NCBI RefSeq assembly: GCF_056712565.1
Contig: NZ_CM160072.1
Reading direction: 5' to 3' (one strand)
DNA: 64,000 bases
Position numbers: made by a program. This document shows positions 18,001 through 24,000 of the stretch, in pieces. The stretch's first letter is position 1, and each line of letters starts with the position of its first letter.

Positions 18001-21000
18001 TTTTTTTCATCATCAGGTTTATCGACATCAGCAACAGGTTGTGGCTTATCACCTTCCTGTTGTGATGGATCACCAACTGGAGCAGGGTTATCACCTGTAG
18101 GCGCTGACGGTTCTGACGCAGCCGGAGCTGCTCCACCATCGACTGGTTGCTCATTGCAAAGACGGCGATACAGCAAACGCTCAAATAAATTCATGATCAC
18201 TCCTGTTCACTGGCCTCTTTGGCCATCTTCAAATACTGTTCAGGGCAATGCGCCATAACGCGCTGAAACAGTTCCAGCGCCAGATTGCGTTGCCCCTCAT
18301 TAAATGCCATTGCCATAGCGTCCATCGGTGAGATAGCGGAAAACACACGGCCTTTCTCCAGCACCGACCAGACAACGCGACGCCCCTGTTCACTGCTCAT
18401 GACAAAGCGAATGTCATCAATTTCACGCTGCGCCATGTCACGTTGCTTACGGGCGTTTTCTTCTTTCAGTTGATCGTCTTCGTAATCTGTCATTGTGATT
18501 GCCCACCCTGACCACTAACTGCATTCGCCATAGCTGACAAAACACTCGGATCCGAAGTTTTAGCTTCACTTAGCGTCTTGGCACCCTGTGCCGCCGCCAT
18601 CCCCATCGCCATCATTTGTTGCTGCTGTTGTTGCTGTGCCCGTTGCTGGCGAGCCTGCTCAACCTGTTCCTGCGGAACAATGACGGTTGGAGACACTCCG
18701 GACATATCAGCGAATGCATCGATCGCCTGATCAACGTTGAGTTTGTCGAGAGCTTCTGGTTTCGCTTGCGCAAGTTGACCAATGAAGTTAACCGTGGACG
18801 CCAGACTGGACAGGCCGATAGACTTCTGCGCCTGAGCCATGACGGAAATGTATTCGACCTTCAGGGGCATGCCTTCCATCGCGTCAGGCGGTGGCGGCAG
18901 CATGTTTTTACGCACCATCATCGAGAAAGAGCGATCAATGAGAGGATTAAGACATTCGTCGTTCAGGCGCTCCAGAACCGGCCCCAACATCAGAAGTTTT
19001 TCTTCTTTCATTTCGATCACCGCTTCCACAGGCATCGAGCGGGTATTGATGTTCTGCAACATCATGAACAGATCGACAAAGTAGGCGCTGTTAATGATTT
19101 GACGAGTGTCCTGAATGTCTGCCACCAAATCTGCTGTACTGGGGTTAACCAGATAAGCAGGCCTGAAACCATCCTGACCAGTAATCTGATCGATATACGT
19201 GATGTCGCCAGGAAGAAGGGAGGCACGCTGATTCTTGAGGGAAGTCGGAGCAACCATCGGCGGATTGGTGGCTTTATCAATCAACTGCGACTTGCGCTTC
19301 TGGAGAAGCTGCAATGCCTTAACAGGTCCAAGCGCCAGCATACCCGGGCATGATGATCCATAAACATCTTCGCCGTTAACTTCCCAGCGCGGAGCCATAA
19401 TTGGAAACTCATCGAATCCGGACTCACGCAACAACTTGTCGTTATCGCCACCAACCTCGTAATAAACCGATTTGAATGGCTTGTTCTTGCTATCCAGCTT
19501 CGATGTATCGCGGTCAATGTTCGGGTAAACCGAATGCATCACTTCAATCCACTTCTCGTAGGTGCCGCTTTCCCACATGCTTTTTACGGATTCGCTGACG
19601 TTATTTAGCCCGAACTCCTGAACAAGCTGACGAACAGTCATAGAGAACTTGCGAAAACAGGTGTCCACACTGCCACGAGGTGAGTTAGCCAGGTAGTAAC
19701 TGCCTATCGGGAATGGCATTGTGCGAATGATGTCCTCGTCATCCTCCAGCACTGCCATTGCACCAGTGCTGTATGTGCCGAGGCTTCCGTATAACTGCGG
19801 CAGCGACTGATAGAGATTCGACTTATTGAACATATCGTTCATGCGGTTCTGCACCGCCTCAAGCCACAACTTAACAGGGCCATAATCCATCATTTCAGGA
19901 TCTGGCGTAGCCAGGCGAAACCACGGACGCGCGGGGCTTGTGATGCCTGACATCATGCCGCTGGCGAGAGTGCGCGCCGCCATAGTCCCGGTCGAATCAA
20001 TAATGCGTGTATTGCGTCGATCGTTACGGTTGACCTCAGAAGTCAGAAAGCGGGAACCACGCGGGTTGATGTAATCACTCAACTCGCGCCAGTGCGGCTC
20101 GAACGACTGACGCTCGCTTTCAAGTTGTGCGAACTGTTTGTTCAATCGCTCTTTAGTTGTTTCCGCCATTTCAATGACTCCGGTTACTGACCAAGCAGCG
20201 TTTTACCGCTGGTATTAGCGGTTGATGTGTCGCCCTGAGAACCGGTAAGCAGCGTAGAACTACGACCAGCAGCAGCGCGACGGCGACGTGTTTCTTCGTC
20301 GCGGGCATCAACAACGGCGGCATCCTGCTCCTGTGGTGCTGCCTGAACTTCTGGTGTTGCAGGCACTGATGGTGAGCTACCCATGCACATATCAATGACT
20401 CCGTACGCAATTAAATTATTACCAATTTAACCACATATGATTTATTTATCGTAGAAGGTTGACATTTAACGCGTTAATTATTACCTTTCAGGTAACCAAG
20501 AGCTCATTCTGGTTACTAACCTGACTGGCTTGTCGTTAAATTAAACAGGTGGAGTGAGCTTTTATTTTGAGCAGTACGGCGTATGGCACATGCGCCGATA
20601 GCGGTCTGGATACGTTTAAGGGGCACCCTCCCTTGCTCGGGCAAACGAACCAGGTAGCCGGAATGTGCAAGTCGAGCGGTTTTATTCCGCGCACGGGGAT
20701 TCACCATCCCGGCGATTCGGTGTGACGCCTCGGAAGAGACGAGGGTACAACGATGAGAGCATTTATGGAGCCGCGACAAAGTGTGGCGCCTTAACAGGCT
20801 AAGTGCTCTCAGCGTTGTGGCATTAGCTCAGTTGGACAGAGCAACCGCCTTCTAAGCGGTTGGTCGCAGGTTCGAATCCTGCATGCCACGCCAGAATCAC
20901 GCCTAAGGACCGTGATGCCAGAAGTTCCAGGTGCTTGGCGGTGATGGTTTCCCTTGAAGGACTATCACCGCCCTTTTTACAGCAGGACGCCATTGCGATG

Positions 21001-24000
21001 ACTTCATGCTGTAAACCAGTACAGCCACGGAAGGCATAACTCATTGCTTCCAGTTCGCCCGGTTCGCCGGGCATTTTTTAAAGGTGAGATTATGAACGAC
21101 CAGCAAATCGAAAAAGAAATCGTTGAGAAAGGCAAAACGGCACCGCGCGTTACGCCAGACCATATCGAAGGCATTATTGCTCAGGAGGCATATTTCACAG
21201 CAGAAGATGGTGCCTTTGGCAAAGCCATAAAAGCGAAACATACTGGCGGAGAGGTAAACTACCAGCCGCACGAATCACTTTCTCTGCTGACGTTCTGCGT
21301 CCTGGTGCTGCGCAACGGCTTCACCGTCACCGGAGAGAGCGCCTGTGCAAGCCCGGAAAACTTTGATGCGGAAATTGGTCGGGAGATTGCCCGGCAGAAT
21401 GCTGTAAACAAAATCTGGATGCTCGAAGGTTACTTGCTGAAGCAGAAGTTAAGCGAGCAATAACACCGTGACATGTCACAAACAGCCAGCCGATGAGCTG
21501 GCTTTGTTTTATCCTCACCAGAGGATATCAGCAGTATTATCCCCACCAGCGGATTAAGCATAAGGGTCATAATCCGTTATGGCCCTTCCCTGCTGGCTTT
21601 GCTGTCCAGGTATATTTATGCGTTTCGAGACCGGGAAAGCAAACGTCAGCAGTAGCGCATCGCCTTTACCCGGCGAACGCCCAAGCCGCTCCTTGATATC
21701 TTCCTTCGGTTCGATAACGATTTTACCGTCCACACGAACTTTGTACTCTGCCGCCGACAGGTCGTCTGCAGTTTCCTGGTCATCCAGCATGCCGCCGAGC
21801 CTCAGCCATGTCTTGCATGAGTTGAACATCTCCCCACGCTTGTTGAGCATCTGCGGGTCAGTAGACGCGCCACCGAACGGAACAAGTTGCCATGTACGTC
21901 CCCAGCCATCACCGATTGACTTCAAACCGGTTCCGTAACCGAAGTCGATGAACACCGCGTCAGCCTGATACTGGTCTTCAAAGTCAGCGATACGCTTCGC
22001 CATAATCAGATCGTCGGTAGTCTTGTTGCCAGTCCACAGCACCTTACTGTGTAGCCCCTGCCGCAGGTATATCACAGCGTCATCAACGCCGGAGTATGCC
22101 GGGTCAACGCCGATTATCACCGGAGCATGTGCAACCTGCGCAGCGGTTACCACCCGTTTCATTGCCTCGTCAGTAAGACCGGTAGGGATAAACTGCAATT
22201 CAGATGCATCAGGGAATATGCCACGCACACGGATTTTAACGAAGTCGCTGTCTTCCCCGTAGTCATCAACCCATTTCTGCAACTGCTGTTTGTTGGTACC
22301 TTCCACCGTCCGACTGTCAATCTGCGCAGTTTTCCAGCGGTGTTTATACTTGCGGAAACATTCACGGAAACGTCCGGTATTACGTGTAGGGTTTCCGAAC
22401 GCCACCCAAATAATCTCAGTGTCTTCGTCCGTAAGCGCACCCTCGGCAACTTCCCACACCAGATCCGCAATGTTCGACGCTTCATCAAACACCACGATGA
22501 TGCGTTTGCGCTCGTTGTGTAGTCCGGCGAATGCCTCGGTGTTGTGCTCAGACCAGGGTATTGCGTCAGCCCGCCACCGCTTGTCGTGCCCTAGGTCATT
22601 GCTGTACATCGCGGTAGCGGTACAGGTAAACCAGTCTTTCGTGATAGCAAGGTTCGACCACTTGATAATTTCCGGCCAGGTCTTCGTTCGTAGCTGGTTG
22701 TCGGTGTTGGCGGTCACCACGACCTTACAATCCTCGCAAGTGGACATGCCCCAGTTGATCAGCATTGAGATGAATGCGGATTTACCAATACCGTGACCAG
22801 AAGCGCGTGCCAGCATAAGCGGCTGATAGCGCGTCTCTGGATTCTGCAGGTGATCACGTATCTCTCGGAACGCATCAGCCTGCCACTGACGTGGGCCGGT
22901 GGCATGTGCCAGTTCAGTCCCCTCTTCCCCCCATGGGAACGCATAGAGGGCATAGCCAAGCGGATCGTGAGTGAACCCTGCAATATCCTCGATTAACTGC
23001 TCTTCAGGAGATAACGCTGTATCTGTCACTGATTGCCATCCTGACGTTCTTTCAGTCTCTTCCTGGCTGCCGCTATGCGATCAGCAATTGTCACATTCAC
23101 ATTAACATCCAGGCGTTCTTTGAATGCGTTGACGTCGACGTGCTTACCAATCAGTTCGAGGTTCTTCACCTTGTCAGGCCATTTAATTTTTTTGAGGATT
23201 GTCTCTATCGAATCCTCGTTCATGTTCATGATGGTCGATGACAGATCAAAGCCACTAAGCGTAGTGCGCCAGATTTTCGGCCACTCGCGGATTGGCTTAA
23301 GGCTCCCATCGTCGTTGAGGATGTCGATCACGTCCATCTGGTCGATCTCCACCAGGCGCATGAGAACGTAATCAGCACTGACGCGCATTCGTTTGTTGCG
23401 CTCCTCCATCAACTCGGCAATCCGTTTTTGAATGCGTTCATCGCGCATCATGACACTGGCTTTAACTGCCGCTGTATTTGGGGAGAATCCTGCGTTAATC
23501 GCTGCCTGAGTCTGGTTTTCAGGCGTTTTGATGTATGACTGGCAATAAGCCTCCTGCATTGCTGTTAGTGGCTTAAATTGCGTTGATTTGCGTTTATAGG
23601 TTTTAGGTTCAGCAGGCATCATAACCACCGTGGTAATAGTTACCGTTGTGGTAATAGTACCATGCAAAATAAAGCCGCCATAGTTGGCGGCAGTATTCAA
23701 AGTCCATCAAATTCATCGTAAAAACTCTCGTCAAGATACCCTTCCCATTTACCGCGAATGAAAATTACATCCTCGCCGCAAGGGTGCTGACTGTCGATAA
23801 CTATATCCCTCCTGGCGCAACCATACTTATGCATGAGAAATTTAACCTCTTTCGGAAAATTTGCTGAGTTATCTCTCATATCTTCAAGGTCGTAGCGTAT
23901 TTTTGGCATAACACCTTCGTGACATGTCACACTATTAATTTCGTTTCATGCCAGCCTTTGGTCACCCAGCATTGCGAGTCACCATTACACGGGCATGAAT

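Follow-up and report, generated by a model that had tools for sequence, protein, structure and literature searches.

A conserved terminator hairpin ahead of a swappable phage gene: possible read-through from a DicF-type small RNA unit

How does a gene come to be expressed when an intrinsic terminator ends immediately before its start codon, and what is the RNA that ends at such a terminator? These questions are raised by a prophage locus of Escherichia coli that we analyzed within a stretch of 64,000 nucleotides (nt) of contig NZ_CM160072.1 (RefSeq assembly GCF_056712565.1), hereinafter the window. The prophage is of the phiV10/epsilon15-like type (Uetakevirus), with the late genes on the - strand in the order terS, terL (ending at 21554), gp3 and the portal gene (start at 20390). 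Between terL and gp3, a gap of 1.1 kb reads on the + strand, antisense to the late genes, and holds a conserved, mostly non-coding unit (20459-21079, + strand) that consists of a promoter with an operator, a pseudoknotted RNA of about 170 nt (hereinafter the core), tRNA-Arg, a DicF homolog with terminator T1, and a second module resembling a small RNA (sRNA) with terminator T2. The initial annotation of this DNA placed a GC hairpin with a U-tract at 21057-21079, ending 12 nt before the ATG of an open reading frame (ORF) and followed by the Shine-Dalgarno (SD) sequence, and these coordinates are correct. Our reading, to which we assign a probability of about 0.55, is that T2 is the terminator of the second of two tandem sRNA modules of the DicF-locus type within one early, repressor-controlled unit, and that the ORF behind it is expressed through read-through. 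The features that bear on this reading are:

20459 to 20495, + strand: putative early promoter and operator (TTGACA at 20459-20464, a 17-nt spacer, TACCTT at 20482-20487) with the overlapping palindrome TTACCTTTCAGGTAA
20921 to 20978, + strand: DicF-like module with a seed-like 5' part, the T1 hairpin (20937-20972) and a U-run (20974-20978)
20975 to 21015, + strand: hairpin H3, UUUACAGCA / UGCUGUAAA, with the invariant apical CGCCAUUGCGAUGAC; the 5' arm includes the T1 U-tract
21029 to 21054, + strand: hairpin H4, more variable than H3, with the seed-like run CAUUGCUUCCAGU (21042-21054) in its 3' arm
21057 to 21079, + strand: T2, intrinsic-terminator hairpin GCCCGGUUCGCCGGGC followed by A and U6, identified by terminator scan, conservation and covariation
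21081 to 21094, + strand: SD of the phage backbone, AAGGTGAG (21081-21088), and the start codon (ATG at 21092)
21092 to 21463, + strand: cargo ORF of 123 amino acids, Acb4 (anti-CBASS sponge) family PF13876 (Pfam E-value 1.4e-34, 118.9 bits against a cutoff of 27)
21484 to 21511, strand unassigned: T3, hairpin AGCCAGCCGATGAGCTGGCT with a T-run, from the terminator scan, facing the 3' end of terL

The T2 hairpin (GCCCGG-TTCG-CCGGGC, 21057-21072) comprises six G-C pairs closed by a UUCG loop, with a predicted energy of -11.2 kcal/mol, and is followed by A at 21073 and T6 at 21074-21079 (U7 in most relatives), that is, it shows the intrinsic-terminator pattern of a GC hairpin with a direct U-tract. 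The terminator scan found T1, T2 and T3, but its 4 sites in 4.5 kb compare with 4.4 expected from shuffled sequences, so the pattern of T1 and T2 alone does not go beyond chance. It is the conservation across relatives that sets T2 apart from a chance hairpin. The comparison set included phiV10, TL-2011b and phiv142-3, 14 annotated phages and about 120 viral contigs, about 130 loci altogether (designated here by L numbers), and more than 200 loci were recovered with simple pattern and BLAST searches. Almost all of the approximately 130 related loci have T2. In alignment A2, which consists of 63 distinct sequences from loci collected with a pattern that included the 3' arm of H3, 99.2% of the T2 cells are paired, and compensatory changes are seen at two of the six pairs (in the Salmonella-type allele, GG/CC becomes AC/GT). 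Judging from these comparisons, T2 is under selection as a hairpin. In all the upstream contexts examined (90 to 580 nt, up to 20495-21072), the stem pairs with a probability of 0.97 or more, and no structure competing for the 5' arm of T2 was found, nor any upstream complement to GCCCGG. In one relative (L115), the loop is reverse-complemented, with GCCCGGCGAACCGGGC in place of GCCCGGTTCGCCGGGC, as if the tip of the hairpin had been inverted. A deletion in epsilon15 (L005 1372-1560) has taken away the tRNA, the 5' arm of T1 and the greater part of the core; T2 is thus the sole terminator between the promoter and the Acb4-like gene.

The junction behind T2 appears to be a docking site for exchangeable genes. 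Among Uetakeviruses from four host genera (about 130 loci), homology extends through T2 and AAGGTGAnnnnATG and then stops. At about 95 of 127 loci, the T-run is followed by AAGGTGA and by an ATG 11-16 nt after the T-run, and at least 14 unrelated N-termini of ORFs occur behind this junction; the cargo is Acb4-like, Tad2-like, one of at least 12 other ORF types, or none. The same Acb4 ORF is present in lambdoid phages, where the homology starts only at 21089, indicating that the SD is not part of the cargo cassette. Considering that the SD lies in the conserved backbone, any mRNA of the ORF carries T2 in its leader, as the initial annotation had concluded. The right border of the slot is T3, which closes it: this terminator is annotated in the phiV10 record and is kept to the right of every cargo type.

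The PF13876 family is Acb4, a family of cyclic-nucleotide sponges that counteract CBASS, the cyclic-oligonucleotide-based antiphage signaling system (bioRxiv 10.1101/2024.12.30.630793, a 2024 preprint); by its sequence, the ORF in the window is an Acb4-family counter-defense gene, and sponge activity can be predicted for its product. Three other cargo types are Tad2-like (PF11195), and comparison of the cargo ORFs of six further relatives with Pfam revealed no additional family. At about 27 loci (for example, L013, L021, L031 and L010), a promoter of the cassette's own, with an operator (GCCTGrTGAC...TACC-N5-GGTA...TATAAT), is located directly behind T2; the gene that follows it encodes a protein of 200-280 amino acids with membrane and coiled-coil segments. 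Possible mini-ORFs of 8 codons are found behind the T2-type terminator in P1 (MVSDFAAV, L219 355-400) and phiv142-3 (MKYEFDGF, L003 3190-3230) and could be leftovers or else very short ORFs that are maintained at this junction.

The transcription that reaches T2 can be traced to a single candidate start. A consensus scan and inspection of the conserved blocks on both strands detected no promoter-like site between T1 and the ATG. The sole upstream promoter candidate is at 20459-20487, where the -35 and -10 hexamers and their 17-nt spacing are kept in the relatives from E. coli, Salmonella, Klebsiella and Enterobacter and the spacer sequence is variable. The palindrome TACC-N5-GGTA, which overlaps the -10 hexamer of this candidate, occurs in 12 copies in the window versus 0.35 expected (at 1667, 2047, 3087, 20482, 23641, 26558, 26620, 28566, 28951, 29663, 29725 and 34747). 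Its copies precede several transcription units, including that of terS, and a repressor site is annotated at the same place in the GenBank record of epsilon15; presumably, this palindrome is the operator of the prophage repressor. The operator on the only upstream promoter candidate suggests that the ORF is expressed early or upon induction rather than in the lysogen. The label of moron that the ORF had received accordingly does not fit a gene for which no promoter of its own was found and which occupies a slot with interchangeable Acb4- and Tad2-type genes and depends on an upstream promoter candidate carrying a repressor operator.

The DicF relationship of the unit is seen in the module that ends at T1. 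This terminator is a 14-bp hairpin followed by T5, with a predicted energy of -22.0 kcal/mol. Local alignment of the module with dicF of the K-12 prophage Qin runs across the whole of DicF with a score of 20, compared to 7.6 +/- 1.4 for shuffled sequences (0 of 3000 shuffles as high), and 37 of the 63 aligned columns are identical. The arms of T1 covary in alignment A2 (GGCGGTGATGG, GGCGGTGGCAG, GGCGGTACCAG), and the module contains three G-U pairs, which identify the + strand as the folded one. At the place of this module, some relatives (L137 2131-2250; L088) carry an RprA-like run, UGCUGUGUGUAGUCUU, and in a Stenotrophomonas phage, the Rfam RprA model matches with 50.2 bits (E-value 6e-4), so that the 3' seed of the sRNA seems to be interchangeable on a shared terminator scaffold. 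In phages of the BUCT711 type (L010 1588-1850; L056; L090), an 81-amino-acid ORF without a match in Pfam begins 16 nt behind the U-run of T1 and has its own SD and a small terminator; the T1 junction of these phages is a second site where an ATG is docked behind a terminator. The recurrence of the layout of sRNA terminator, SD and ATG behind T1, in the BUCT711 type and related loci, counts in favor of our reading.

The segment between the two terminators has features of a second sRNA. The further stem-loops that the initial annotation mentioned in 20980-21079 exist, namely H3 and H4. All cells of H3 are paired in alignment A2, and pair 168-187 is GC in 40 and AU in 23 sequences; the invariance of the 3' arm arises in part by construction because that arm was in the search pattern. 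The run CAUUGCUUCCAGU in H4 consists of 13 nt identical to the conserved core of RyhB and lies directly 5' of a GC hairpin with a U-tail. The alignment with K-12 ryhB scores 26, compared to 13.7 +/- 2.3, a value reached by 2 of 2000 shuffles; the relationship of the run to RyhB could be mimicry, descent or chance. Three variants (L171, L205 and L210) join the module straight onto the upstream scaffold, with no T1 or H3; they retain the run although its hairpin partner GGAAGGCA is missing, which speaks for a constraint on the sequence itself. In a pattern table of 192 loci, unrelated terminators among them, 72 terminators are preceded by the 13-mer and 99 by TTGCTTCC. Klebsiella-type phages have a second allele, CCAUCAUCCCUGUUUC, in place of the run. 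A search for the complement of the seed within the window matched only the locus itself, and the best match to a Fur box, 10 of 19 positions, is at the background level.

Furthermore, homology links the T2 module with the 3' end of the 'dicF-like region' of phage P1, with alignment scores of 28 for epsilon15 and 21 for the window versus 7.6-7.7 +/- 1.5 (0 of 3000 shuffles as high). By analogy with DicF, the RNA ending at T2 would be cut from a longer transcript rather than made from a separate gene. The proposal that 20980-21079 is a small RNA is thus partly supported, as a 3' module of the DicF type, given the conserved seed-like run, the GC hairpin, the U-tail and the P1 homology, and is not supported as a gene of its own, given that no promoter was found for the segment. 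A small ORF in H3-H4 (MTSCCKPVQPRKA) was rejected; it lacks an SD, and relatives differ in it by non-synonymous and frame-breaking changes. Both svsR (PMC12803456) and the Pas sRNAs (bioRxiv 10.64898/2026.05.13.724894) were considered and are different elements, and a literature search with sequence strings found no match.

The lack of a promoter-like site between T1 and the ATG, together with the lack of a structure competing with T2, makes the ORF dependent on read-through, as is dicB behind dicF, and the homology with DicF and P1 combined with the common layout allows the unit in the window to be read in the same way as the dicF operon. We infer from the sequence the promoter activity, repression in the lysogen, the efficiency of termination, processing, Hfq binding and the function of the seeds. 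Under this scheme, most transcripts would stop at T1 or T2, and the stopped transcripts would be processed by RNases III and E to give the tRNA and short RNAs of the Hfq type, as is known for DicF. A minority that passes both T1 and T2 would be translated from the SD and ATG of the backbone into the resident counter-defense gene, here the Acb4-family sponge. T2 could then have three jobs: forming the 3' end of an sRNA, setting and insulating the expression of the cargo, and providing a fixed left border for cargo exchange. Jointly, T1, T2 and T3 may also shield terL from antisense transcription.

Several observations weigh against this reading. Sponge proteins act stoichiometrically and should require high early expression, a poor fit with leakage through two strong-looking terminators, and the own promoters behind T2 at about 27 loci suggest that read-through alone may be too weak for some of the cargo. 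The Rfam DicF model (RF00039, gathering score 48 bits) has no match at E-values up to 10 in the window and gives 22.3 bits in the relative L011; the RyhB model (RF00057) gives 16.5 bits in the window (E-value 5.1), below the gathering score of 55, and after allowing for the number of known sRNAs, the RyhB match could arise by chance with a probability estimated at about 0.1. In PAS61 and related phages, the seed is deleted and T2 is kept. Finally, close relatives make up most of the alignment, and the compensatory changes therefore stand for few events in evolution.

Upstream of the sRNA modules, the unit contains three further features:

20575 to 20749, + strand: core leader RNA with helices P1 and P2, the invariant run GGUAGCCGGAAUGUGCAAG, P4 with a CACC/GGUG pseudoknot, and P5
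20748 to 20816, + strand: long closing stem CAACGATGAGAGCA / TGCTCTCAGCGTTG around a variable hairpin, covarying among relatives
20817 to 20893, + strand: tRNA-Arg(UCU), identified by ARAGORN (Rfam tRNA, 73.3 bits)

The core, with its five helices in about 170 nt, is a previously unannotated structured RNA that is absent from Rfam (no match at E-values below 10) and has no annotation by the Prokaryotic Genome Annotation Pipeline among the matches listed from E. coli genomes. In alignment A4 (59 distinct sequences), 95.4% of the cells in the core are paired versus 25-49% in slid controls, compensatory changes affect 13 of the 30 pairs, and the pseudoknot covaries from CACC/GGUG to AACC/GGUU. 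Stenotrophomonas phages and lambdoid phages also have the core, and P1 and P7 carry it between trnI and ban; many genomes of E. coli contain it, in prophages of the phiV10-like and lambdoid types and in P1-like plasmids. It is located 10-110 nt downstream of repressor-controlled early promoters, directly after them in the lambdoid mEp460, cdtI and Stx2c phages; in mEp460, it comes right after OL/PL, the position of nutL in lambda and of putL in HK022. In most loci, an intrinsic terminator follows 240-730 nt past the core and is itself followed by the first gene, and at about 11 loci there is no terminator within 1.3 kb after the core. The prophage in the window has a single copy of the core.

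The closing stem that follows the core is likely to be an RNase III site, by homology with the dicF precursor of Qin, in which the homologous GTGCGCTTCCGGTTGTGG sits at the start of the 190-nt DicF species. Where relatives have no tRNA (for example, L220 2235-2380), exactly its place is taken by a domain of about 115 nt closed by an acceptor-like stem, GTGGTGA...TCACCAC; the tRNA looks to have been swapped into a longer RNA. In the MN187550 record, the tRNA is annotated on the wrong strand.

The position of the core raises the possibility that it acts in cis on RNA polymerase, as an analogue of the put RNAs of HK022, which act from the same position (PMC9378689), and that T1 and T2 are passed only by polymerases coming from the early promoter. 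Such gating would explain how a stoichiometric sponge can be made early and at a high level behind two terminators, and it agrees with the strong conservation of the structure and the pseudoknot of the core, with its location just downstream of repressor-controlled early promoters, corresponding to nutL/putL in mEp460, and with the terminator and first gene downstream of it in most loci. However, the idea is one of position: the core shows no sequence similarity to HK022 put (the immunity region was searched), loci without a terminator in the 1.3 kb past the core exist, and the prophage has one copy only. Moreover, the T2-type terminator of phage P1 lies upstream of the core while ban is expressed from Pban, so that read-through of this type of terminator does not need the core. 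Because of this arrangement in P1 and the lack of similarity to put, we consider gating by the core to be improbable, if worth keeping in mind. The wider proposal, that the core is a new cis-acting processive antiterminator, that T2, SD and ATG form a gated docking site, and that both terminated RNAs, the DicF-like and the RyhB-seed-like one, are made from one transcript as phage mimics of host sRNAs, is doubtful to a similar extent. A classical attenuator or riboswitch, in which T2 would alternate with an antiterminator in response to a signal, was the conditional read-through suggested by the initial annotation, and a terminator about 20 nt before a start codon is indeed the usual layout of such devices. 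It has to be set aside as highly improbable: the T2 stem forms in all contexts and its 5' arm has no upstream partner, no conserved leader ORF, leader peptide or adjacent aptamer was found beside T2, the H3-T2 interval is the least conserved part of the unit, and a natural deletion of the H4 region in phage PAS61 leaves T2, the SD and the ATG intact.

The remaining explanations separate the ORF from the unit upstream of it or assign the hairpins to another transcript. If 20980-21079 were an independent sRNA gene with its own promoter and the ORF a separate matter, the conservation of the segment, the invariant apex of H3, the seed-like run and the Hfq-type terminator would be readily accounted for; against this stand the lack of a sigma-70-like promoter in or upstream of the segment (consensus scan and inspection of conserved blocks), the lack of a Fur box above background, the fusion of the module to a scaffold without T1 or H3 in the three variants described above, and the fact that its homologs, DicF and the P1 module, belong to longer transcripts, all of which leave this explanation with little to recommend it. 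Conversely, the ORF could have a cryptic promoter, not of the sigma-70 type, activator-dependent or overlapping T2, with T2 merely ending the upstream unit. The consensus scan is crude, and some relatives do carry a promoter behind T2, but in the window, the 12 nt between the T-run and the ATG are occupied by the SD, a transcript starting inside or after T2 would lose the SD, hexamers proposed over T2 agree with the consensus in just 3 of their 6 positions (by inspection), and the junction is identical ahead of unrelated ORFs; we regard such a promoter as very unlikely. Still less probable is an action of the hairpins on the - strand, as signals for the processing or stability of the late mRNA running from terL to the portal gene. 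Late transcription must cross the 1.1-kb gap, and the epsilon15 record predicts RNase III sites nearby on the late strand; yet on the - strand the G-U pairs of T1, H3 and the core would turn into A-C mismatches, and it is the + strand that carries the U-tracts, the tRNA and the ORF.

The unit is common: at least 80% of 20440-21100 is present in about 500 of 5,426 complete E. coli genomes (approximately 9%). Two - strand ORFs that are annotated as proteins in several phage records, 20823..21074 (PhiV10p04) and 20516..20779, are almost certainly not genes; their overlap with the tRNA, T1/T2 or covarying RNA led us to reject them as spurious. Rfam scans, run over the whole window at the gathering threshold and permissively over the locus and its relatives, assigned no family to the core, H3 or T2, and the weak permissive matches were limited to RyhB in the window and, among relatives, DicF and RprA. 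Elsewhere in the window, isrK (74 bits) and the C4 antisense RNA (79.5 bits) match at the Rfam gathering level side by side at 2097-2278 (+ strand), adjoining operator copies; this is the P1/P7-type C4-antirepressor immunity module of the prophage. At 56193-56284 (- strand), where the DNA is host chromosome, there is the sRNA sroE (116.6 bits).

If read-through from tandem sRNA modules is indeed how the ORF is expressed, the locus would show where and how widespread temperate phages express their immune-evasion sponges, Acb4 and Tad2, namely, behind an sRNA terminator of the DicF type, at a junction with the translation signals of the phage backbone. A rule for finding counter-defense genes would follow, that is, to look for the ORF after T2, AAGGTGA and ATG, and the old and poorly understood dicF-dicB layout would be tied to the conflict between phages and their hosts. 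Two RNAs would have surfaced as well, a phage sRNA with the core sequence of RyhB and a pseudoknotted leader common to P1 and lambdoid phages.

Among the known systems, the leader terminator tR' downstream of PR' in lambda yields the short 6S RNA, and StxS of the Shiga toxin (Stx) phages is made likewise; the downstream genes in these phages need read-through, for which the Q antiterminator is responsible, and the promoter is where the short RNA begins. In the window, by contrast, a short RNA would arise as the 3' end of a long precursor through processing, and no antiterminator was identified. With RyhB, the T2 module shares the 13 nt of CAUUGCUUCCAGU just 5' of a GC hairpin and U-tail, but the 5' half differs, the seed abuts the terminator, and there is no Fur box. 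The core occupies the putL position of HK022, after the early promoter and before the terminators, but is about 170 nt long, compared to about 70 nt for put, and shares no sequence similarity with it. Another related system is the 'dicF-like region' in the ban leader of P1 (NC_005856): the homology of its 3' end, GCUUCCAGUUUGCCCAUCUUCGGGUGGGCGUUUUUU, with the T2 module covers both the seed-like run and the hairpin, and its location between the C1-controlled promoter and the rest of the ban operon means that read-through is required there, although it is followed by tRNAs, tci genes, the core RNA and ban, with no SD/ATG docking junction.

A close counterpart of the unit in the window is dicBF of Qin (RF00039). 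There, DicF is reported to be processed from the transcript of a repressor-controlled promoter, with its 3' end generated by termination, no internal promoter, and dicB behind the terminator (after Faubladier 1990); longer species extending to dicB are reportedly not detected. The unit in the window has a putative repressor-controlled early promoter, a long structured non-coding stretch that shares GTCGTTAAAT...GTGCGCTTCCGGTTGTGG with Qin, and, behind an sRNA terminator, a protein-coding gene for which no promoter of its own was found, and its T1 module aligns with all of DicF; the operator, the gene order and the lack of internal promoter-like sites would suit an operon of the dicBF type. The differences are that the window has two tandem modules, both below the Rfam DicF threshold, with a tRNA and the pseudoknotted core in the precursor; that the gene starts 12 nt after the U-run rather than about 175 nt as in Qin; and that this gene is a swappable counter-defense gene, whereas dicB encodes an inhibitor of cell division. 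The arrangement appears to be of the known dicF-dicB kind, in a new form.

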